DNA of 34,328 nt. Source: a virus. Its lineage: Duplodnaviria > Heunggongvirae > Uroviricota > Caudoviricetes. Location of the stretch: IMG/VR virus record IMGVR_UViG_2526164597_000016. One strand, given 5' to 3'. Made by a program: the position numbers and the translations under genes. Under the pieces are notes generated by a model, which was given only the letters and a program-made list of their open reading frames with translations, did no database searches and was not told the origin of the DNA. Below are positions 5,786 through 26,328 of this stretch, piece after piece (the stretch's first letter is position 1; the number at the start of each line of letters is the position of its first letter).

Positions 5786-5896
5786 CAATAATGATTGACA
5801 TGCTTGATTTTGTATTCACAAATCAAGCATCAAGTAAACATCGATGATGAGAAAGAACAATGCTACAATCCCCACAGCATTAGAAGGAGGTTTATC
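5786..5896 (+). promoter_or_regulatory. Promoter/operator region of the methyltransferase gene
   Basis: Perfect inverted repeat TGCTTGATTT 5801-5810 / AAATCAAGCA 5820-5829 (9-bp spacer) next to TTGACA 5795-5800; extended -10-like TGcTACAAT at 5861-5869; AGGAGG 5885-5890 six nt before the TTG start. Confidence 0.5.
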
Positions 5897-6946
5897 TTGA
5901 TTAAGGTTGTTGATTTATTCTGTGGCGCGGGTGGCTTGACTCACGGTCTTCAGAAGTCGGGGCTTAATGTAGTTGCAGGTTATGATATAGATGCAGCCTG
6001 TCGATTTGCCTATGAGACAAATAATAAATCACTCTTTGTCCAGAAAAGTGTTACAGACATTGAGGACGGCGAATTAGTTAAATATTTCGAAGGAGCGAAG
6101 GTTCGAGTTTTGGCTGGTTGTGCCCCATGCCAACCTTTTTCAAGCTATACCAATAGTGCTAAATTAGGGGTAGTACGTTCAAAAGATAAAAGATGGTCTT
6201 TGCTTTATAGCTTTGCTAAGCAAATTAAATTTGCAAAGCCAGATATTATTACAATGGAAAACGTTCCCCGAGTGGTGAATCATAAGGTTTTTAAGGACTT
6301 CATTAAGTCTCTTAAAAATGATGGCTATTTTGTTTGGTATGGGGTGGTGTTTTGTCCAGACTATGGAATGGCACAAAGTCGTTCAAGATTAGTGTTATTG
6401 GCATCAAAATATGGAGAAATAGAAATAATTCCACCAACTCATGAGAAGAATGATTATAAAACGGTGCGAGATATAATCGGTAATCTTCCTGAAATTAGTG
6501 CCGGTGCTGTTCACGCTGGAGATAAACTACATCGCTCTGCATCATTATCTGATATTAATATAAAAAGAATAATGGCATCAAAACCTGGTGGAACATGGCG
6601 TGATTGGCCAGAAGAGCTAAGAGCAAAATGTCATACAAAAGAAAGTGGTTCTACATATACTGCTGTATATGGGAGAATGTGTTGGGATAAACTTGGACCG
6701 ACAATTACAACTCAATGTATTGGATATGGGAATGGACGCTTTGGGCACCCTGTCCAAAATAGAGCATTAAGTTTAAGAGAGGCTGCGCTATTACAGTCAT
6801 TCCCAGAAAAGTATGAGTTTTGGCCTGATGATGTAAAAATTGAAATGAGAACAGTTGCGCGTTTAATAGGTAATGCTGTTCCTGTTAGGCTTGGTGAGGT
6901 CGTAGGTGAAACTATTTTAAAACATTTGTCAGAAATGAATATTTAA
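5897..6946 (+). CDS. DNA (cytosine-5)-methyltransferase (Dcm-like), probable TTG start
   Basis: Motif I DLFCGAGG, motif IV PCQPFS (catalytic Cys), motif VI ENV, motif VIII QSRSR, motif X GNAV; the ORF-track N-terminal extension from 5795 translates the promoter/palindrome and is probably not coding. Confidence 0.85.
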   Translation: MIKVVDLFCGAGGLTHGLQKSGLNVVAGYDIDAACRFAYETNNKSLFVQKSVTDIEDGELVKYFEGAKVRVLAGCAPCQPFSSYTNSAKLGVVRSKDKRWSLLYSFAKQIKFAKPDIITMENVPRVVNHKVFKDFIKSLKNDGYFVWYGVVFCPDYGMAQSRSRLVLLASKYGEIEIIPPTHEKNDYKTVRDIIGNLPEISAGAVHAGDKLHRSASLSDINIKRIMASKPGGTWRDWPEELRAKCHTKESGSTYTAVYGRMCWDKLGPTITTQCIGYGNGRFGHPVQNRALSLREAALLQSFPEKYEFWPDDVKIEMRTVARLIGNAVPVRLGEVVGETILKHLSEMNI

Positions 6947-6958
6947 AACTTATGTCAT

Positions 6959-6980
6959 CCCCCTGTCAAAAAACAGGGGG
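6959..6980. terminator. Hairpin between convergent genes, probable bidirectional terminator
   Basis: CCCCCTG (6959-6965), loop TCAAAAAA, CAGGGGG (6974-6980), lying between the methyltransferase stop (6946) and the ATPase stop (6987). Confidence 0.5.
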
Positions 6981-6986
6981 GTATAA

Positions 6987-8945
6987 TTAGATTCCCTCAA
7001 CTATTTTCATAATTCTAGCTGCATCATTCTTTTTGTCTTGATATTCAGCATAGGCTTGTTTTGATTGCACGATTAGGTCATTATATGTCAATATTTTTCC
7101 ATTGATAGAAAGTAATTGCATATTTATAAAGTGTTGGTTCTCTTGTAAATATCCAGAGCCAACCAGGAATATTACTTCTATATGCGGTATATTTCCACCT
7201 GGGCAATTTTTAGGGTTATTGGAGAACCATTGTGTCGTTGCCTGTACATATTTATTACCTTGTGCGACTAGGTTCATTATATCTGGGTGCACTTTAGGTC
7301 GTTTCATCTCAATAATTACATGCTTGCCAGAAACGGTTTTGAAAGCGATATCAATACGAGCACCGCTAGCAGCATCAGGGTTTATCTGTTTTAGTTCCTT
7401 GGTCAATGTTTGCTCCATAACAGATGTGCCTGTGACTCTTTCCCATGAAGGATCCAATAACCATAAATGATCATATAAATACATTTGTACAGCTCTTTCA
7501 AGCTGATTTTCATCAGTTATTTTTTGGAATTTTTCAATTACTTTAAGGCGTTGCGAAGTAATTTCATAAAACATGCTTGCTTCAATGTCATTGACAGATG
7601 CAAATACATCTTTAAAATTTTCTGATTGAAGGTTGCTTATTTTATCTAATGCATCAAGGTTGTCTTGAATTCTAAGTCTTTCAAAGGCTAATACCGTATT
7701 TTTTAATACGGTTTTTCTTGCTGCTTTTTGTTCTTCCTCATTACCAGAAAAACGGAATGTGTTTACTCGTCCAATTAACTTTTCGGCACTTTCTCTCTCA
7801 TGTTTTTTGAGAGAATTCAGCCATTCACTTACTATTGGAGTATTGCTTTTAACTTCATTTACTCCTTTTTCGCGTCTCCATTTATCCCAATCTTTATCGA
7901 TTAGTTGTAGCGTTCTTTCCAGAAAACCTTTAAGTACAGGGTATCTTGGATCATTCTGTTGTAGTTTTTGACGAGAAGATGTTGCCATATCAGGCTTTTC
8001 GTTATCATCTAGAAAATCGGCGACTATTTCACCGACCAGATAATTGGTGAATACTTTAGCACTTCCAAATTCTAATAATATGTCCTCCTCAAAAACACGT
8101 CCGTGAGAGATTACAGTAATGCTGTTGTTAGATATTTCAGGGTCTTTCTTTAACTGTGATGGCTTAACTACACTGCCAATGTACCCACTAACTTTTACAT
8201 CTTTTCCTTCAAAGGTAATAGTATTTGGTAATATGTTTTTTTGTGTGATGTTTGTGCAGGATTTTATCCTTTCAGGGTCGGATTCGCCAAATTCCCAAAT
8301 GAACTCGAGATCTGAAAGGAAATCTCTATCTGCCGGTGTAATATCGGTCCCATTAATTTTAACTGTAAAGTTATGGTTGGGGCCAATAATGCTAAATCGA
8401 CGAGCTATTCGCTTTCTGAGGTAAGTTTGAGTCCTATCAATGGCTTTTTTTAGTTCAAATAATTTAATTGTAGTGCCGTAAGCAAGATTTTCGGGTATTT
8501 CAAGGGAGTCAGCAATATAGTTTTTTGATTCTTTGATACTTTGCTGTAAATCTTTGACATCTACCTCAAAGGCCTGAGGCTGTTCCCCCTTTTTGTACGA
8601 ATAAACTTGGATTTTATTGGCAAGTGAAAACATGGCAAGCTTACCAATACCTTTTCTGCCCATAACTTGACGTTTTAGATGATCGCTTTTGGCTCTTCCA
8701 TGTTCCCTGCGAGCATAACCGACTTTTAGGAACTTATTAATAATGTCATCTTTAGACATGCCATGACCATCATCTTTAATGATGACCTCTCCTTTCTCAA
8801 CATCAAGTGTAATTTCTACATTTTGAGCATCTGCATCCCATGCATTTGATATAATCTCAGTTAGTACCGCGGGAGTATTGGAATAGAGACTCATCCCTAG
8901 GTGATTTAGCACATTCAAATCAATTTTAATTTCGAAATCTGACAT
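6987..8945 (-). CDS. GHKL (Bergerat-fold, MORC/MutL-like) ATPase with C-terminal PD-(D/E)xK-like nuclease motif; candidate defence or restriction effector
   Basis: N-terminal ATPase motifs EIISNAWDA (N box), DDGHGM (G1), GRKGIGKLA (G2); C-terminal RIDIAF ... HVIIEMKRP fits a D ... E-x-K nuclease signature; AAGGA precedes the ATG; gene is AT-rich by inspection. Confidence 0.7.
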   Translation of the reverse strand: MSDFEIKIDLNVLNHLGMSLYSNTPAVLTEIISNAWDADAQNVEITLDVEKGEVIIKDDGHGMSKDDIINKFLKVGYARREHGRAKSDHLKRQVMGRKGIGKLAMFSLANKIQVYSYKKGEQPQAFEVDVKDLQQSIKESKNYIADSLEIPENLAYGTTIKLFELKKAIDRTQTYLRKRIARRFSIIGPNHNFTVKINGTDITPADRDFLSDLEFIWEFGESDPERIKSCTNITQKNILPNTITFEGKDVKVSGYIGSVVKPSQLKKDPEISNNSITVISHGRVFEEDILLEFGSAKVFTNYLVGEIVADFLDDNEKPDMATSSRQKLQQNDPRYPVLKGFLERTLQLIDKDWDKWRREKGVNEVKSNTPIVSEWLNSLKKHERESAEKLIGRVNTFRFSGNEEEQKAARKTVLKNTVLAFERLRIQDNLDALDKISNLQSENFKDVFASVNDIEASMFYEITSQRLKVIEKFQKITDENQLERAVQMYLYDHLWLLDPSWERVTGTSVMEQTLTKELKQINPDAASGARIDIAFKTVSGKHVIIEMKRPKVHPDIMNLVAQGNKYVQATTQWFSNNPKNCPGGNIPHIEVIFLVGSGYLQENQHFINMQLLSINGKILTYNDLIVQSKQAYAEYQDKKNDAARIMKIVEGI

Positions 8946-9376: not shown

Positions 9377-10411
9377 TCAACCGTTGTCAGTGTCCAGTGA
9401 GTAGTTTTTAAAGCGGATGACCTCCTGACCGAGCCAGCCGTTTATTTCCCGAATTCTGTCCTGTAACGGGATAAGCTCATTGCGGACAAAGACCTTTGCC
9501 ACTTTCTCAATATCTCCCAGTGACCCGACGTTCTCCGGCTTGCCGCCCATCAACTGAAAGGGGATACGGTGCGCGTCCAGCAGGTCAGCGGCGCTGGCTT
9601 TTTTGATATTAAAAAAATCGTCCTTCGTTGCCACTTCACTGAGCGGGATAATTTTAATGCCGTCGGCTTTCCCCTGTGGGGCATAGAGAAACAGATTTTT
9701 AAAGTTATTGCGGCCTTTCGACTTCACCATGTTTTCGCGAAGCATTTCGATATCGTTGCGGTCCTGCACGGCATCGGTGACGTACATGATGTATCCGGCA
9801 TGTGCGCCGTTTTCGTAATACTTGCGGCGGAACAGCGTGGCCGACTCATTCAGCCAGGCAGAGTTAAGGGCGCTGAGATATTCCGGCAGGCCGTACAGCT
9901 CCTGATTAATATCCGGCTCCAGCAGGTGAAACACGGAGCCGGGCGCGAAGGCTGTCGGCTCGTTGAAGGACGGCACCCACCAGTAAACATCCTCCTCCAC
10001 GCCACGGCGGGTATATTTTGCCGGTGAGGTTTCCAGTCTGATGACCTTACCGGTGGTGCTGTAACGCTTTTCCAGAAACGCATTACCGAACACCAGAAAA
10101 TCCAGCACAAAGCGGCTGAAATCCTGCTGGGAAAGCCACGGATGCGGGATAAATGTCGAGGCCAGAATATTGCGTTTGACGTAAATCGGCGAGCTGTGAT
10201 GCACGGCAGCACGCAGGCTTTTCGCCAGACCGGTAAAGCTGACCGGCGGCTCATACCATCTGCCGTTACTGATGCACTCGACGTAATCCAGAATGTCACG
10301 GCGGTCGAGTACCGGCACCGGCTCACCAAAGGTGAATGCCTCCATTTTCGGGGCGCTGGCGGTGATTGTTTTTGCCGCAGGTCGCGGTGTTTTCCCTTTT
10401 TTCTTACTCAT
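9377..10411 (-). CDS. Q: Portal protein (P2 gpQ)
   Basis: 344 aa, same length as P2 gpQ; start overlaps the P stop (ATGA); adjacent to cos. Confidence 0.9.
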   Translation of the reverse strand: MSKKKGKTPRPAAKTITASAPKMEAFTFGEPVPVLDRRDILDYVECISNGRWYEPPVSFTGLAKSLRAAVHHSSPIYVKRNILASTFIPHPWLSQQDFSRFVLDFLVFGNAFLEKRYSTTGKVIRLETSPAKYTRRGVEEDVYWWVPSFNEPTAFAPGSVFHLLEPDINQELYGLPEYLSALNSAWLNESATLFRRKYYENGAHAGYIMYVTDAVQDRNDIEMLRENMVKSKGRNNFKNLFLYAPQGKADGIKIIPLSEVATKDDFFNIKKASAADLLDAHRIPFQLMGGKPENVGSLGDIEKVAKVFVRNELIPLQDRIREINGWLGQEVIRFKNYSLDTDNG

Positions 10412-17682: not shown

Positions 17683-18112
17683 TGCCGTCACGGTGCTGAA
17701 AACCAGTCCCGAGATGCTGCGGATATTCGTGGATAACGGGAGTATTGCCTCCACACTGGCGACGTCGCTGTCATTCGAAAAGCGTTACACGCTCAACGTG
17801 ATTGTGACCGACTTTACCGGTGATTTTGACCTGCTCATCGTGCCGGTGCTGGCGTGGCTGCGGGAAAATCAGCCAGACATCATGACCACCGACGCAGGCC
17901 AGAAAAAGGGCTTCACGTTTTATGCAGACATCAACAATGACAGCAGCTTTGATATCAGCATCAGTCTGATGCTGACCGAGCGCACGCTGGTCAGTGAGGT
18001 GGACGGCGCACTGCATGTGAAGAATATCCCGGAACCTCCGCCGCCGGAGCCGGTCACCCGCCCGGTGGAGCTTTATATCAATGGTGAACTGGTGAGCAAG
18101 TGGGATGAATGA
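17645..18112 (+). CDS. R: Tail completion protein R (P2 gpR)
   Basis: 155 aa, same as P2 gpR. Confidence 0.8.
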   Translation: MLKPDSLRRALTDAVTVLKTSPEMLRIFVDNGSIASTLATSLSFEKRYTLNVIVTDFTGDFDLLIVPVLAWLRENQPDIMTTDAGQKKGFTFYADINNDSSFDISISLMLTERTLVSEVDGALHVKNIPEPPPPEPVTRPVELYINGELVSKWDE

Positions 18113-18557
18113 GTTTAAGCGTTTTGAAGACCGGCTGACCGGACTGATTGAGTCGCTGTCACCGTCAGGGCGTCGGCGACTGAGTGCCGAACTGGCAAAA
18201 CGTCTGCGACAGAGTCAGCAGCGTCGGGTGATGGCACAGAAAGCCCCGGACGGCACACCCTACGCGCCACGCCAGCAGCAGAGCGCCAGAAAAAAGACTG
18301 GTCGTGTTAAGCGAAAAATGTTTGCGAAACTTATTACCAGTCGTTTTTTGCATATCCGCGCCAGCCCGGAGCAGGCATCAATGGAATTTTACGGCGGGAA
18401 GTCGCCGAAAATCGCCAGTGTGCATCAGTTCGGTCTGTCGGAAGAAAACCGGAAAGACGGTAAGAAAATTGATTATCCGGCGCGTCCTCTGCTCGGCTTT
18501 ACCGGTGAGGATGTGCAGATGATTGAAGAGATTATCCTGGCTCACCTTGAGCGTTAG
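18105..18557 (+). CDS. S: Tail completion protein S (P2 gpS)
   Basis: 150 aa, same as P2 gpS. Confidence 0.8.
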   Translation: MNEFKRFEDRLTGLIESLSPSGRRRLSAELAKRLRQSQQRRVMAQKAPDGTPYAPRQQQSARKKTGRVKRKMFAKLITSRFLHIRASPEQASMEFYGGKSPKIASVHQFGLSEENRKDGKKIDYPARPLLGFTGEDVQMIEEIILAHLER

Positions 18558-18587
18558 TTTTATCCAGACAGAGGCTGATGCGCAATT

Positions 18588-18622
18588 AAACATTGAGCGG
18601 CCATGCTGGTCGCTCAATGTTT
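18588..18622. terminator. Perfect 12-bp stem hairpin between S and the reverse-strand cargo gene; possible bidirectional terminator
   Basis: AAACATTGAGCG 18588-18599, 11-nt loop, CGCTCAATGTTT 18611-18622; there is no clean U-tract on either side. Confidence 0.4.
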
Positions 18623-18628
18623 AGAGGT

Positions 18629-19414
18629 TTATGAGTGATTTTTATTTGATGCTTTGTATTCTAAAACCTTCTTATTGGCGTAAAAGAATTTTGTATATGA
18701 CAGGAATATAACCAGACCTGAAGTGAAATAGACGAGGGATAGTATTAATAATGCTTTTTTGTGACTGTTATTATCTTTAATCTCCTGGCTTAACCATTCG
18801 GAGTCCTCCTCGTTTAGCTGTAAGAGCTTATTGCAGGCGATTTCAGGAAGTGTGTCTTTTATAAATACGTTTTGCAGTCTCTTGCAATCGGCAAGGCTAT
18901 AAGTTTTATTAAATTCAACTGCTTTATTTTTGAAGGATAAAAGAACTTTGTCACTATAAACATAGTACATCATATTTTTATATGGTATGCCTATGGCATC
19001 TCTTACTATAGCGGATTGTTTGTTGTGTATATAACATGCGAAGAGAATATAAATAATACTGGCCAGAATTACAATTATTGTTTTAATTATGTGTGGTGGT
19101 TTTGTTATGTCACCCCAGATGCGAGCAAGGAAAAAATACGATGTTTTTAGTTTTCCATCAATCAGTCCCTGCTGTATCATTCTCACATTTTCAATGCCTG
19201 ATACATTGATTCCGTTAATTATTTTAAATAGTTGAATGTCGCGCCACTCGCGGTCAAGTCTTTTTAATTTTTTGTCTGAATATCCAAAATTGAAATAATG
19301 TGCAATAAGCCTCATAAGGTTACTTTTACCAAAGCTAAAAAATGCTAATACTGCAAAGCTACAAAGGAAAAAAACGATTAGCCCCCACACATTAGTCACA
19401 TTATAGCTGACCAT
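18629..19414 (-). CDS. Accessory (moron) membrane protein of unknown function, about 3 TM helices (P2 orf30 position)
   Basis: 261 aa, AT-rich and on the opposite strand to the flanking tail genes; strong AAGGAG before the ATG; hydrophobic segments VWGLIVFFLCSFAVLAFFSF, IIKTIIVILASIIYILFACYI, ALLILSLVYFTSGLVIFLSY. Confidence 0.6.
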   Translation of the reverse strand: MVSYNVTNVWGLIVFFLCSFAVLAFFSFGKSNLMRLIAHYFNFGYSDKKLKRLDREWRDIQLFKIINGINVSGIENVRMIQQGLIDGKLKTSYFFLARIWGDITKPPHIIKTIIVILASIIYILFACYIHNKQSAIVRDAIGIPYKNMMYYVYSDKVLLSFKNKAVEFNKTYSLADCKRLQNVFIKDTLPEIACNKLLQLNEEDSEWLSQEIKDNNSHKKALLILSLVYFTSGLVIFLSYTKFFYANKKVLEYKASNKNHS

Positions 19415-19497
19415 TACGCTCTCCTTGAATGTTGTCTGGTAGTTCTACAAATGAATCCAGATAGCATAACTTTTATATATTGTGCAATCTCACATGC
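19415..19497. promoter_or_regulatory. Candidate late promoter for the V operon and promoter of the divergent cargo gene
   Basis: TATATA at 19474-19479 upstream of V; partial Ogr-like dyad TGT-N11-ACA at 19433-19449, which is not the canonical N12 spacing. Confidence 0.3.
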
Positions 19498-20133
19498 ATG
19501 AACACTCTCGCAAATATTCAGGAACTCGCGCGCGCACTGCGCAACATGATTCGCACCGGCCTTGTCGTCGAAACCGACCTTAACGCCGGTCGCTGCCGTG
19601 TGCAGACCGGCGGCATGTGCACCGACTGGCTTCAGTGGCTGACCTGTCGTGCCGGGCGTTCGCGCACATGGTGGGCACCTTCCGTGGGAGAGCAGGTGCT
19701 GATTCTGGCCGTGGGCGGTGAACTTGACACGGCGTTTGTTCTGCCGGGGATTTATTCCGGCGATAACCCCGCGCCGTCTGCGTCGGCGGATGCCCTGCAT
19801 ATCCGTTTCCCTGACGGGGCGGTGATTGAGTATGAACCCGAAACCAGTGCACTCACGGTAAGCGGAATTAAAACGGCCAGCGTGACGGCTTCTGATTCTG
19901 TTACTGCCACGGTGCCGGTGGTCATGGTGAAAGCGTCAACCCGCATCACCCTGGACACACCGGAGGTGGTCTGCACCAACAGGCTGATTACCGGCACGCT
20001 GGAAGTGCAGAAGGGCGGGACGATGCGCGGCAACATTGAACACACCGGCGGTGAACTCTCATCAAACGGTAAGGTACTGCATACCCATAAACACCCCGGC
20101 GACAGCGGCGGCACAACCGGGAGTCCTCTATGA
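19498..20133 (+). CDS. V: Baseplate spike / assembly protein V (P2 gpV)
   Basis: 211 aa from ATG 19498 (MNTLANIQELARAL...), matching P2 gpV. Confidence 0.85.
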   Translation: MNTLANIQELARALRNMIRTGLVVETDLNAGRCRVQTGGMCTDWLQWLTCRAGRSRTWWAPSVGEQVLILAVGGELDTAFVLPGIYSGDNPAPSASADALHIRFPDGAVIEYEPETSALTVSGIKTASVTASDSVTATVPVVMVKASTRITLDTPEVVCTNRLITGTLEVQKGGTMRGNIEHTGGELSSNGKVLHTHKHPGDSGGTTGSPL

Positions 20134-21923: not shown

Positions 21924-24173
21924 ATGAGCACAAAATTCAGAACCGTTATCACCACTGCTGGTGCAGCAAAGCTGGCAGCGGCAACCGCGCCGGGAGGGCG
22001 GAAGGTCAACATTACCACGATGGCCGTCGGGGATGGCGGTGGTAAATTGCCTGTCCCGGATGCCGGACAGACCGGGCTTATCCACGAAGTCTGGCGACAT
22101 GCGCTGAACAAAATCAGCCAAGACAAACGAAACAGTAATTATATTATCGCAGAGCTGGTTATTCCGCCGGAGGTGGGCGGTTTCTGGATGCGTGAGCTTG
22201 GCCTGTACGATGATGCTGGAACGTTAATTGCCGTGGCGAACATGGCTGAAAGTTATAAGCCAGCTCTTGCCGAAGGCTCAGGGCGTTCGCAGACCTGCCG
22301 CATGGTCATCATCGTCAGCAGTGTGGCCTCAGTGGCGCTGACCATTGACACCACAACGGTGATGGCAACGCAGGATTACGTTGATGACAAAATTGCAGAA
22401 CATGAACAGTCACGACGTCACCCGGACGCCTCGCTGACCGCCAAAGGTTTTACTCAGTTAAGCAGTGCGACCAACAGCACGTCTGAAACACTCGCCGCAA
22501 CACCAAAAGCGGTAAAAGCAGCATATGACCTTGCTAACGGGAAATACACTGCACAGGACGCCACCACAGCGCGAAAAGGCCTTGTCCAGCTCAGTAGTGC
22601 CACCAACAGCACGTCTGAAACGCTCGCCGCAACACCAAAAGCGGTAAAAGCAGCATATGACCTTGCTAACGGGAAATACACTGCACAGGACGCCACCACC
22701 GCGCGAAAAGGCCTTGTCCAGCTCAGTAGCGCCACCAACAGCGATTCTGAAACGCTTGCGGCAACGCCAAAGGCGGTTAAGACAGCGTATGACCTTGCTA
22801 ACGGGAAATACACTGCACAGGATGCCACCACAGCGCGAAAAGGTCTTGTCCAGCTCAGTAGCGCCACCAACAGTGATTCTGAAACGCTGGCTGCAACACC
22901 AAAAGCGGTGAAGTCTGCCTATGACAATGCTGAAAAACGTCTTCAGAAAGATCAGAACGGTGCGGATATTCCTGATAAAGGACGCTTCCTGAGTAACATT
23001 AATGTTTACAGCAAAGGTGAAGTGGATAAGAAAAAGGGAATGCGAAAGTATTCGTTTGCAGCCCCTGCAAATGTCGTTGCCGGGAAGTGGTATCCCGTTA
23101 TCTTTCGCCGTGCTGCCAGCCTTTCAGGAGAAATGGCATCCCGCGTCGTTATTTCAACTGGTTGTTATAACGGCGATTATGTAATGAATAACTGCGAGTT
23201 TAATGGCATGGTTATGCCCGGAGGCTGGACCGATCGTGGTTCATATGCGGCAGGTTATTTCTGGACGTATCAGACTAATGAGCGTTCAATCCATTCCATT
23301 GTTACAAGCCTGAAAGATGATGATGTATGTAGTGTTTTTTATGTTGAAGCCAGAGCTTTCCCTGTACAAATTCTTGCAGAGGAAGGGCTAACGGTTATTG
23401 TTCCGACAGAGGATTATGTCGTCGGTCAAACGACATATAAGTGGGGGGCAACTAATCCCGCTACAGAAAGCACGAACGCACAGGCTATTCTGGATTTTAA
23501 AAATGGGCGCGGTTATTACTGCTCACATCCATTTATTTCCAGCCTTTCAGGAAATGCTGCAACAGCAACGAAGTTAGCGAATGCAAGAAATATTAATGGT
23601 GTCAGATTTGATGGTTCTGCCGATATAAATATTAATACACTGGTATCCAGAAACCGTGTTACTGCATTAGGTGGGAGCTCAAAGGGTACACCAGGTATTC
23701 AGATGTATGAGGCATACAACAATGGCTACCCAACAGCCTATGGTAATGTGCTTCATCTCACTGGCGTAACCGCAGTAGGAGAGGGTGAGTTACTTATTGG
23801 CTGGAGTGGAACCAGCGGTGCTCATGCTCCGGCATATATTCGCTCCCGACGAGATACCACAGATGCTAACTGGTCTGGATGGGCGCAACTATATACAACT
23901 GCTCATAAACCCTCAGCGGGAGATGTTGGTGCATACACCAAAGCTGAGTCAGATTCACGTTATGTGAGAGACATGCGACTGGGCGGTGCATCTACATATA
24001 AACCAGCAAATAATGGTACTACATGGACGCATCAGGCTCCGTCAGGTTGCGTATATACCGGCATTATTGTTCAGGATACCGGCTCAAACTCTGCCGATAA
24101 CATTGGTGGCGTATATTACAGGCCGGTGCAGAAATACATTAACGGGACATGGTATAACGTGGCGCAGGTATAA
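21924..24173 (+). CDS. H: Tail fibre protein H with internal tandem repeats
   Basis: 749 aa; conserved N-terminal tail-fibre region, repeat block, then divergent C-terminal receptor-binding part; followed by G. Confidence 0.85.
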   Translation: MSTKFRTVITTAGAAKLAAATAPGGRKVNITTMAVGDGGGKLPVPDAGQTGLIHEVWRHALNKISQDKRNSNYIIAELVIPPEVGGFWMRELGLYDDAGTLIAVANMAESYKPALAEGSGRSQTCRMVIIVSSVASVALTIDTTTVMATQDYVDDKIAEHEQSRRHPDASLTAKGFTQLSSATNSTSETLAATPKAVKAAYDLANGKYTAQDATTARKGLVQLSSATNSTSETLAATPKAVKAAYDLANGKYTAQDATTARKGLVQLSSATNSDSETLAATPKAVKTAYDLANGKYTAQDATTARKGLVQLSSATNSDSETLAATPKAVKSAYDNAEKRLQKDQNGADIPDKGRFLSNINVYSKGEVDKKKGMRKYSFAAPANVVAGKWYPVIFRRAASLSGEMASRVVISTGCYNGDYVMNNCEFNGMVMPGGWTDRGSYAAGYFWTYQTNERSIHSIVTSLKDDDVCSVFYVEARAFPVQILAEEGLTVIVPTEDYVVGQTTYKWGATNPATESTNAQAILDFKNGRGYYCSHPFISSLSGNAATATKLANARNINGVRFDGSADININTLVSRNRVTALGGSSKGTPGIQMYEAYNNGYPTAYGNVLHLTGVTAVGEGELLIGWSGTSGAHAPAYIRSRRDTTDANWSGWAQLYTTAHKPSAGDVGAYTKAESDSRYVRDMRLGGASTYKPANNGTTWTHQAPSGCVYTGIIVQDTGSNSADNIGGVYYRPVQKYINGTWYNVAQV
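22455..22982 (+). repeat. Four tandem copies of a 132-bp (44-aa) unit inside H (phage tail-fibre repeat)
   Basis: Units start at 22455, 22587, 22719 and 22851 (LSSATNS(T/D)SETLAATPKAVKAAYDLANGKYTAQDATTARKGLVQ); the last copy degenerates. Confidence 0.85.
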
Positions 24174-24985: not shown

Positions 24986-25921
24986 ATGGCTACTTATGCT
25001 TCTTATTTACCAGAATCACAAATTATCACTTTGTGCAAGGATTTCCCAGCGTTTACTGATCCTGAAAAATTAGATGGATTCATTAATCCAGAACAGTTTG
25101 GCGTGTTTTTTCATGAGTGGATTCATTTTCTTCACAATATTTCCACAATTAATGGGTTTTCTATTTTTTGCACGCAAAACATCCTGTGGTCTAATTTTCG
25201 CTGGGCAATGGACAATCAGGATGTATGTCTTGGTTCAAATGACATGGATCCAGCACATATCGAATCAAACAAAAATTTTCTCAGTTACATTCGTTCCAAT
25301 AGGAGTCTGCATAAATGTAACTTACCTTATTATGTAAAAGTAAACGACTTGTATTTTGAGGATGCAATAATCCATGACATGGAGGTTGCTGACGGTAGTG
25401 TTATATGTACATCATTAATAAAGTGTAGAATTTCTCATTCTGAAAACAAATACGATCTAGATTTAGGCGTGCTTGAAATACTTGAATCCGCAGCTTTTAT
25501 GCTTGAATGTAAGTGTATTAATGCGATGAATGGCTTCCCTCAAGAGGCACCCTTTTATCCGTATCATACTATCAAGGGCTTAGCAGCGAAAATTGCTCCG
25601 TCATTAAATGATGAAGATATTATTTGTTGTATGTTAGCTTCTTTGCAATCTAATAACCCTCCCCAAGTATTATTCAATCTACTACATAAATGTGAATTAT
25701 TACATTCTGATTGTAGGTATGAACATCTAGTGGCGGAGGTGAAAAAACAATTAAGCGAACAAGATCAAATAATAAGCGAGTCACTTAATCAAATAATTCA
25801 AATGATTCCTGTTGATGAACCGATGGGAAACTTTATCAAGCTTACTCTTAACAGAATAAGTAACAATTTGAACTATAGAAAGCAAAAACCGTTTTTTGAG
25901 TTAGATATAATAAAAAAATAG
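24986..25921 (+). CDS. Accessory protein with HExxH motif (possible zinc metallopeptidase-like), in the P2 Z/fun position
   Basis: 311 aa; AT-rich; GAGGA six nt before the ATG; motif FFHEWIHFLHN contains H-E-x-x-H. Confidence 0.6.
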   Translation: MATYASYLPESQIITLCKDFPAFTDPEKLDGFINPEQFGVFFHEWIHFLHNISTINGFSIFCTQNILWSNFRWAMDNQDVCLGSNDMDPAHIESNKNFLSYIRSNRSLHKCNLPYYVKVNDLYFEDAIIHDMEVADGSVICTSLIKCRISHSENKYDLDLGVLEILESAAFMLECKCINAMNGFPQEAPFYPYHTIKGLAAKIAPSLNDEDIICCMLASLQSNNPPQVLFNLLHKCELLHSDCRYEHLVAEVKKQLSEQDQIISESLNQIIQMIPVDEPMGNFIKLTLNRISNNLNYRKQKPFFELDIIKK

Positions 25922-25938
25922 CAGAAAAAACTGAGTTT

Positions 25939-26328
25939 ATGAATGAAGTAATACAGAAATTCGGTGGTTGCACTATCATCCAGGTAAGACATGGAGATGA
26001 TAATGAACCACAGCGTGATATTATGTATGACTTTTGCTTACCTGAAAATAATGATTCAATTTTATTTGGTTCGAAAATGCTACGCGCTTGTTTTCACTTT
26101 ATATTTATTCACTTTAAACTTTCTGGTGAAATCATGAAGACAGAAGAATTAAATATTTCGCCGCGTAATAAATGCCCATTTTATACTGTTTGCTGTGCAT
26201 CAATTCGAGCTAATAATAGTAATATCTGCGCTGAATCCCCTTGGAAATCAATGTCTATTGATGACAACAAAGGTTGTTATTATGCAGCAGCGATTAAAGC
26301 TACTAACCCACCAGTTTTGCCGGATTAA
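25939..26328 (+). CDS. Small Cys-rich accessory protein, co-oriented 17 bp downstream of the HExxH gene
   Basis: 129 aa with eight Cys (GGCTII, DFCLPE, RACFHF, CPFYTVCCA, NICAES, KGCYY); AT-rich; weak ribosome-binding site. Confidence 0.5.
   Translation: MNEVIQKFGGCTIIQVRHGDDNEPQRDIMYDFCLPENNDSILFGSKMLRACFHFIFIHFKLSGEIMKTEELNISPRNKCPFYTVCCASIRANNSNICAESPWKSMSIDDNKGCYYAAAIKATNPPVLPD

Follow-up and report, generated by a model that had tools for sequence, protein, structure and literature searches.

What is a gene of low G + C content doing between two tail genes of a phage, read against both? The question is raised by a stretch of 34,328 nucleotides (nt), IMG/VR virus record IMGVR_UViG_2526164597_000016 (Caudoviricetes); the whole of this stretch, at its full length, is called the window below. 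Over its entire length the window represents a P2-like prophage, flanked by cpxP and fieF, and a prophage in Escherichia coli APEC O2-211 is 99.965% identical to it. The gene is located on the minus strand, between tail genes S and V, and encodes a protein of 261 amino acids (aa). The best overall explanation, advanced tentatively, is that it is an allele of orf30 of phage P2 and encodes an accessory inner-membrane protein that may serve as a superinfection-exclusion factor.

Identity and anatomy of the gene

A 2.2-kb stretch around the open reading frame (ORF) is 97.6% identical in DNA to phage P2 and spans the annotated orf30. The window protein and P2 Orf30 (AAD03281) are equal in length and identical at 255 of 261 aa (98%). 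PHROG 2407 is matched over positions 1-261 of 261 (E = 3.2e-148). Since the P2 match covers orf30 and the proteins agree so closely, the window gene can be taken on these sequence comparisons, with near certainty, as an allele of P2 orf30 itself and not as a look-alike at the same site. An earlier interpretation from the letters alone (the sequence-only reading) had placed the gene in the P2 orf30 position and proposed a comparison with P2 orf30. The position is correct, but the statement was too weak: the comparison returns an allele of that gene. In P2, orf30 is recorded as 'putative 30.4 kDa protein', is marked 'nonessential' and has the same S/V slot, antisense orientation, hairpin and PV/Ogr region (PV, late promoter of V).

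Six substitutions separate the two proteins (A97T, I121F, F125L, K132E, A135V, I141T), all within aa 97-141. In DNA the genes differ at 12 nt, nearly all in one patch of about 160 bp. The patch corresponds to window positions 18990-19150, over the second transmembrane (TM) segment with its borders; elsewhere the gene is near-identical. This distribution suggests a short recombination tract between orf30 alleles.

The feature is already catalogued as P2 orf30, and nothing here shows unusual activity. The exact database match to the window protein, WP_000255495.1, is named 'hypothetical protein' by every source, and Orf30 is entered as 'unknown' in PMC3091744. Full-text literature searches return no functional study of orf30 or of the Pfam family DUF6216, and no assigned function. 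New here are the size of the family, its slot-locked context, the contrast with neighbouring genes in the ratio of nonsynonymous to synonymous substitution rates (dN/dS), the retention in decayed prophages and as orphans, the topology and a weak link to DUF6216.

The locus comprises the following features (window coordinates, strand).

18105-18557 (+): gpS, tail-completion protein; its gene ends the late O operon (PHROG 26, E = 4e-58; P2 annotation)
18565-19497 (no strand): present/absent cassette (three-way alignment of window, P2 and pro483)
18588-18622 (no strand): hairpin with 12-bp perfect stem, between the convergent stops of S and orf30
18629-19414 (-): orf30 coding sequence, 261 aa, ATG start (ORF list; exact protein WP_000255495.1)
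19415-19497 (no strand): divergent control region, 83 bp, from orf30 ATG to V ATG; holds the late promoter PV
19421-19426 (-): Shine-Dalgarno sequence AAGGAG, 6 nt before the orf30 ATG (read from sequence)
19429-19456 (+): Ogr/Delta activator site of PV (transferred from P2 misc_feature 10239-10266)
19498-20133 (+): gpV, baseplate-spike protein; its gene heads the V operon (PHROG 6142 / PHROG 11; P2 annotation; PGAP in APEC O2-211)

The orf30 ORF is a real gene: every E. coli allele examined has the same length and no indels, and dN/dS stays below 1 in all pairs but one of the two least diverged. G + C content is about 33%, against about 57% in the flanks (0.31-0.37 over 18600-19500; 0.55-0.63 on both sides). 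The deficit is spread over all three codon positions, as seen from G + C values at positions 1/2/3 of 0.38/0.27/0.34 in orf30 and about 0.6/0.45/0.65 in S, V, W and J. Three hydrophobic segments exceed 2.0 (Kyte-Doolittle, 19-residue windows): aa 9-28, 109-129 and 221-240. An AAGGAG/AAGGA-type Shine-Dalgarno sequence with similar spacing is present upstream of most distant homologues inspected; none is present upstream of the copy in an Enterobacter metagenome-assembled genome. The description given by the sequence-only reading is thereby borne out: an antisense, AT-rich gene of 261 aa with roughly three TM segments, located between S and V (PHROG matches and P2 annotation), with its own AAGGAG and with a perfect 12-bp-stem hairpin past its stop.

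The hairpin starts 6 nt past the orf30 TAA, with arms AAACATTGAGCG / CGCTCAATGTTT. As RNA of the orf30 strand it folds at -22.4 kcal/mol (z = -5.5; 0 of 200 shuffles equally stable), and the plus-strand version also folds strongly. U-tracts beside it are short and weak on both strands (UUUAAUU / UUUAGAGGUUU). It is not called by a consensus terminator scan, because the loop is longer than 8 nt. The equivalent hairpin in the P2 record is the 'putative rho-independent terminator for O operon', on the opposite strand to orf30, and therefore serves two converging transcripts. It is likely a bidirectional terminator. The hairpin seen in the sequence-only reading is thus present, and as a terminator would be shared with the late O operon. 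In Serratia and Sodalis prophages (L004 8779-8801, L005 8776-8804, L030 8794-8804) the 3' ends of the orf30 homologue and S overlap by 11-29 nt as annotated, which therefore leaves no room for a P2-type intergenic hairpin.

The cassette (about 18565-19497) stands in place of a 66-bp S-V spacer in the empty-site phage pro483, a viable relative. The replaced segment takes in the PV promoter region, just upstream of V; PV regions therefore differ between phages with and without orf30. The gene had been described as inserted cargo. It is an accessory unit, but the cassette replaces the whole S-V spacer, including the PV region.

The Ogr site stretch is near-identical in the window and P2 and ends only about 15 nt from the orf30 ATG. 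In the 83-bp control region 1 nt differs in each of two further E. coli alleles (L026, L027) and about 5 nt in a third (L025), unlike their coding sequences, which differ by 7-14%. Any orf30 promoter is confined to these 83 bp or to the 5' end of V, and must therefore overlap PV and the Ogr site. A weak, hand-read promoter candidate, usable on either strand, is the AT-rich TATAAA/TATATA block at 19472-19479 (TATAAA at 19472-19477 (-)); it is not accepted as evidence. A mutually exclusive switch is an attractive, speculative idea: orf30 would be active in the lysogen, and PV would take over once Ogr is present. With its promoter interleaved with Ogr-dependent PV, orf30 could switch off when the resident phage goes lytic.

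Distribution, family and evolutionary rate

The census covers 5,426 complete E. coli genomes. P2-type V-W genes are found in 1,615 of them (about 30%; 1,852 places) and P2-type orf30 in 464 (about 9%; 483 places). An uninterrupted, empty S-V junction is found in at least 1,024 genomes. With 464 against at least 1,024, the slot in E. coli therefore appears mostly either empty or filled by orf30; a minority of S/V slots hold other cargo. The gene is dispensable, because the isolated phages pro483, HQ103 and S164 are without it, about 1,024 genomes have the empty junction and the P2 record marks it as nonessential.

The family is small. A word-indexed search of 5.8 billion proteins returns just five clusters, at 97, 88, 85, 80 and 39% identity. 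An exhaustive profile search of 1.84 billion representatives returns 44 matches at E < 0.001, about 25 of them full-length (250-270 aa) and of the same architecture. In a 36-sequence alignment, members other than the E. coli group are 15-38% identical to the window protein. Phage records encoding Orf30 number 21 of 50,697, all Peduovirus. Among 72,556 plasmids no copy is found.

Nearly every relative with readable context occupies the S/V slot of a P2-like phage or prophage, antisense: 12 of 12 IMG/VR contigs, three Serratia loci, Rahnella, Sodalis, an Enterobacter metagenome-assembled genome and four further E. coli. Identity to the window proteins is 66-86% for V and 56-81% for R at these loci, but only about 16-40% for the Orf30 homologue. 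Even distant homologues (16-25% identity) keep the exact slot and orientation across several genera. No gene is consistently adjacent to orf30 as a partner; the neighbours at phage loci are tail genes. The site had been called a moron site. Deviant base composition, presence or absence among otherwise collinear phages and a hairpin terminator of its own are all found, and the promoter search gives weak candidates that overlap PV. The term says too little of a family that holds the same slot and orientation at such distances.

All family members have 30-37.5% G + C, with flanks of 49-61%. AT-richness as a mark of recent acquisition is rejected, as every lineage falls in this range whatever its flank; it is therefore a maintained property of the family and not a sign of recent arrival.

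Intact copies are also found away from functional phages. A prophage of S. rubidaea without head genes retains one. Orphan genes of the family (32-35% G + C) are located in three Enterobacter chromosomes (L020 7001-7789, L021 6977-7768, L003 1-788), outside any recognisable prophage, beside genes for a chemoreceptor (methyl-accepting chemotaxis protein, MCP), an extracytoplasmic function (ECF) sigma factor and a DsbD-like protein. The L020 and L021 orphans are syntenic over 14.7 kb at about 94% DNA identity, with a dN/dS of 0.21 for the gene. Orf30 is therefore kept where no virion can form.

A further intact copy of this kind is that of E. coli 'strain C' (NZ_CP029371.1, L023 6084-6998). Its P2-like prophage has lost the head and lysis genes through a deletion that joins a fragment of portal gene Q directly to a fragment of S, but retains orf30 and the tail genes V-H intact. 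The TO region of the same prophage holds an 'ABC-three component system'.

Evolutionary rates were compared in six E. coli alleles (15 pairs), a sample too small for site-wise tests. All six have 261 codons and no indels, with DNA differing by up to 14%. The dN/dS of orf30 is 0.42-0.54 in 13 of the 15 pairs, and 0.25 and 1.24 in the two least-diverged pairs; dN is 0.06-0.13 in well-diverged pairs. At comparable dS the neighbours give 0.03-0.23 (R), 0-0.07 (S), 0.12-0.24 (V), 0-0.19 (W) and 0.01-0.11 (J), with 0.35 in one near-identical V pair. By this contrast orf30 is coding sequence under constraint, yet its protein evolves at five to ten times the rate of the structural proteins encoded beside it. 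Variable sites make up 70% of TM1, 52% of TM2, 32% of the periplasmic domain, 21% of the cytoplasmic loop and 14% of the C-terminal tail. Such rapid change is compatible with an arms race and also with relaxed constraint on helices that face the lipid.

Predicted topology and candidate function

The protein is divided as follows (window coordinates, strand).

19331-19390 (-): TM1, aa 9-28 (hydropathy; AlphaFold2 (AF2) helix 4-28); N-terminus predicted outside
19091-19330 (-): cytoplasmic loop, aa 29-108; median net charge +5.5 in 36 members
19028-19090 (-): TM2, aa 109-129 (hydropathy, AF2)
18755-19027 (-): periplasmic domain, aa 130-220; four-stranded sheet 141-173 and helices (AF2); cysteine pair
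18695-18754 (-): TM3, aa 221-240 (hydropathy, AF2, charges); followed by a basic cytoplasmic tail, aa 241-261

Median net charges in 36 members are -1 (N-terminal tail), +5.5 (loop 1), -1 (loop 2) and +2 (C-terminal tail). The median number of cysteines is 2 in loop 2 and 0 elsewhere. Charge pattern and loop-2 cysteines together therefore give a predicted topology with the N-terminus outside, loop 1 cytoplasmic, loop 2 periplasmic and the C-terminus inside. A C177-C194 disulfide in the periplasmic loop is probable. The AF2 model, built on a 28-sequence alignment (pLDDT 84, pTM 0.73), has three TM helices, cytoplasmic helices 48-67, 74-86 and 91-94 (pLDDT 83-94) and a periplasmic sheet 141-173 that packs on helices. 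Loop 1 is the best-conserved region, with the lowest mean column entropy (2.03 bits) and the motif D-x-Q-L-F-(K/R)-x-x-N-G-I-N-V...D-A...G-x-L. Invariant in the 36-sequence alignment are G68, C194 and I212; nearly so are D76, G87, L208 and C177, the last conserved in at least 90% of the family. Orf30 is very probably an accessory inner-membrane protein, a location predicted from the three TM segments and the positive-inside pattern across the family.

Domain searches return little. The window protein matches no Pfam family at E <= 1, DUF6216 included (none at E <= 5), no PADLOC-DB 2.0 family at E <= 1 and nothing meaningful in NCBIfam; 28 relatives give isolated, chance-level PADLOC matches only. 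PDB sequence-profile searches return noise of TM composition, and structure searches generic helical matches. No enzymatic or transporter signature is found in Pfam or PDB profile searches. DUF6216 (PF19723) is similar in length class (about 250-270 aa) and is weakly matched by 10 of 28 members, one of which, P0028 (the S/V copy of a Sodalis prophage), scores 28.9 bits against a gathering score of 27.3, with aa 10-255 aligned to model positions 10-265 of 270. The window protein itself falls below the gathering threshold and gives no match. Because of these relatives, Orf30 may be regarded as a remote outlier of DUF6216 through a transitive link. The function of DUF6216 is undescribed in the literature, and the sole paper mentioning it is unrelated.

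The proposed mechanism is as follows. The gene would form a self-contained cassette of divergent promoter region, ORF and bidirectional terminator between the late O and V operons. Its product would be made from the prophage and would act alone, at the inner membrane, in phage-phage conflict. There it may interfere with the trans-envelope DNA-delivery step of incoming phages, that is, cause superinfection exclusion. The variable TM and periplasmic parts would face the invader, and the conserved cytoplasmic loop would serve in assembly or host contact. Intact copies in decayed prophages and orphans with a dN/dS of 0.21 argue for a host-side benefit independent of virion production. Whether Orf30 has an anti-phage role of any kind is a nearly balanced question, with a slight lean towards such a role. 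Exclusion at the DNA-entry step, likened by analogy to P22 SieA, T4 Imm and HK97 gp15, is a more tentative proposition. About equally tentative is the idea that Orf30 and its relatives, a divergent branch touching DUF6216, represent an unrecognised class of single-protein inner-membrane anti-phage factors, slot-locked at S/V in Peduoviridae, kept AT-rich in several genera and plausibly in an arms race with contractile-tail DNA delivery.

Several points weigh against exclusion. The most conserved part of Orf30 is cytoplasmic, not periplasmic, and suits a sensor or effector no less than a periplasmic blocker. Relaxed constraint on TM helices could likewise produce a dN/dS of about 0.5, and the TM segments are the most variable parts. 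Upstream of orf30, where the only room overlaps PV and the Ogr site, no sigma-70 promoter is called by a consensus scan. After more than 25 years of work, P2 lysogens are not known to show any exclusion phenotype beyond those of old, tin and fun. No sequence or fold homology to a characterised superinfection-exclusion protein is detected in the searches above. In the surveys of P2 defence hotspots that were searched, the term orf30 is absent and the S/V slot is not described as a defence locus.

Superinfection exclusion or abortive infection, the function suggested in the sequence-only reading, is a candidate compatible with everything found. As an abortive-infection effector, Orf30 would be a latent pore or membrane-disrupting protein (DUF6216, possibly SLATT-like) whose cytoplasmic loop senses a phage product and which then depolarises and kills the cell before the invader matures. 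This is unlikely, though the best placed of the alternatives. Conservation is highest in the cytoplasmic loop, as expected of a sensor or gating module; with about 80 residues, however, the loop offers little for an autonomous sensor. One member, P0050, has a PADLOC 'RTasSLATT' match (E = 0.0025, aa 113-228), but this match is single, borderline and on TM-rich sequence. A second member, P0059 (Rahnella), bears the UniProt name 'SMODS and SLOG-associating 2TM effector domain-containing protein'. The weak DUF6216 matches, with P0028 passing the gathering score over its full length, point in the same direction, although DUF6216 is itself without known function. AT-richness in every lineage would suit low or silenced expression of a toxic protein. 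SLATT two-TM effectors (Burroughs et al. 2015) resemble Orf30 as membrane proteins in conflict-prone loci; Orf30 differs in having three TM segments, not two, and a periplasmic insert of about 90 aa between TM2 and TM3. The SLATT lead is set aside: Pfam (SLATT_1-6) and NCBIfam scans of 36 members give no SLATT match even at E <= 5, and the neighbourhood is unsupportive, with tail genes at all phage loci and no SMODS, SLOG or reverse transcriptase neighbour.

Less probable again is a lysogenic-conversion factor outside defence, active in envelope stress signalling, transport, or tolerance of colicins or tailocins. Retention in decayed prophages, a chromosomal orphan under purifying selection beside MCP, ECF sigma and DsbD-like genes in Enterobacter, and the failure of any defence model to match speak in its favour. 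A generic host benefit, however, hardly explains why the gene keeps almost exclusively to a single slot in a single phage family (Peduovirus in 21 of 21 phage records; 0 of 72,556 plasmids), and neither the fast evolution of the protein nor the lack of an enzymatic or transporter signature agrees with it.

A lytic role in the phage cycle is improbable: Orf30 would tune P2 lysis timing, DNA entry or the exclusion of sibling virions, helpful without being essential. The gene is close to the lysis cassette, its promoter must interleave with PV and the Ogr site, and it adjoins spike gene V in every phage lineage; linkage to this membrane-piercing spike could reflect functional coupling. But orf30 runs opposite to both late operons, about two thirds of the P2-like prophages of E. 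coli and some viable phage isolates do without it, and it is intact where particles can no longer form and where no phage is present.

A functionless passenger, in which the ORF would be incidental to a decaying or selfish AT-rich insertion, could be argued from more than 25 years with no function found, the lack of a recognised domain and a dN/dS above that of the neighbours, but is effectively excluded by 261 aa without indels across E. coli alleles up to 14% different in DNA, by a dN/dS well below 1 (0.21 in the orphans), by invariant residues and an architecture that persist at 16-25% identity across genera and by the confident AF2 fold (pLDDT 84) from a 28-sequence alignment.

Superinfection exclusion by an inner-membrane protein thus remains the preferred, tentative reading. 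P2 is a model phage, with P2-like prophages in about 30% of complete E. coli genomes and orf30 in about 9%. Three other accessory loci of P2 have proved to be anti-phage genes or hotspots rich in defence systems, in surveys that leave out the S/V slot. For this slot, orf30 is a sharply defined single-gene candidate, with a predicted topology, a conserved cytoplasmic motif, a probable periplasmic disulfide domain, natural alleles and natural knock-outs in the form of empty-site phages. If an anti-phage role is true, P2, the best-studied temperate E. coli myovirus, carries an overlooked fourth exclusion function. If exclusion at the inner membrane is true, a new protein family joins a class with few mechanistically understood members, and the result is relevant to the prediction of host range in phage therapy. 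If there is no phenotype, orf30 remains an ordinary ORFan moron.

Other accessory loci and comparison with known systems

Other genes at the S/V site have been reported in phage R18C and a Burkholderia phage. The 741-bp ORF of R18C was considered as a divergent Orf30 and rejected: the copy in E. coli 09-02E is on the sense strand, weakly matches HNH_5 and scores below 0 with the hidden Markov model of the family. This copy (NZ_AP022650.1, L028 1720-2460) is a sense ORF of 246 aa with CxxC...H...CxxC and an HNH_5 match at E = 0.0095. It has the length (741 bp) and position of R18C ORF16, is matched to it by those alone and is unrelated to Orf30.

Two loci hold further genes beside an orf30 homologue. 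In IMG/VR UViG_3300013815_000003 (L017 5965-6900) two extra S/V ORFs on the same strand lie upstream of it: one of 180 aa with HEFVH (HExxH), the other a 133-aa lipoprotein with lipobox LTGC (Pfam DUF7480, E = 2e-21). Next to the spike gene, the two might form a toxin/immunity-like pair. In the Enterobacter metagenome-assembled genome (JBCNNT010000016.1, L022 7996-8817) a second cargo gene, on the strand of the late genes, separates the orf30 homologue from S. Its product of 273 aa has two TM segments near the N-terminus and a C-terminal domain that is helical and acidic, and gives no Pfam or PADLOC match.

The S/V site has been named, with the TO and Z regions, as one of three loci of horizontally acquired genes in P2-like phages (PMC3091744). 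In the window the TO hotspot (gene A to portal gene Q, 5795-8945) holds no old or tin. An AT-rich type II restriction-modification pair is present instead: a C5 cytosine methyltransferase at 5795-6946 (+) (PADLOC MTase_II/DrmMII, E = 1e-90) and, convergent with it, a restriction enzyme of 652 aa at 6987-8945 (-) (REase_II, E = 2e-91), for which PGAP gives only 'ATP-binding protein'. The Z/fun hotspot (G to FI, 24986-26328) holds two AT-rich ORFs of 311 aa (HEWIH motif) and 129 aa, without Pfam or PADLOC match, which form a single 447-aa ORF in APEC O2-211. Window and APEC O2-211 differ by a single 1-nt gap; the frame break in Z/fun adjoins an A-run at about 25910-25920. The cargo gene here looks frameshifted or error-prone in sequence in the window. 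Direct repeats of about 132 bp occur within tail-fibre gene H at 22464-22931 (self-matches offset by 132 and 264 bp, 86-91% identity, in the BLAST comparison with the APEC copy).

Among known systems the nearest in setting are P2 old, tin and fun/Z. Like orf30 they are dispensable genes of AT-rich composition that some phages carry and others lack, at fixed gaps in the P2 backbone. The TO and Z hotspots take up many unrelated systems, whereas the S/V slot nearly always holds the orf30 family or nothing.

The nearest in lifestyle, by analogy only, is SieA of phage P22, also a prophage-borne single gene for an inner-membrane protein with several sequence types. P2 is a contractile-tail phage, with delivery machinery unlike that of P22. 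The three sequence types of SieA are less than 30% identical; SieA is expressed from the prophage and blocks DNA delivery (PMC10883804). Unlike for Orf30, its block of DNA injection is demonstrated, with escape mutations in the ejection proteins gp16 and gp20. The two proteins have no detectable relation in sequence or fold, and the resemblance is one of lifestyle, not of ancestry. Unlike the types of SieA, those of Orf30 additionally share one genomic slot.

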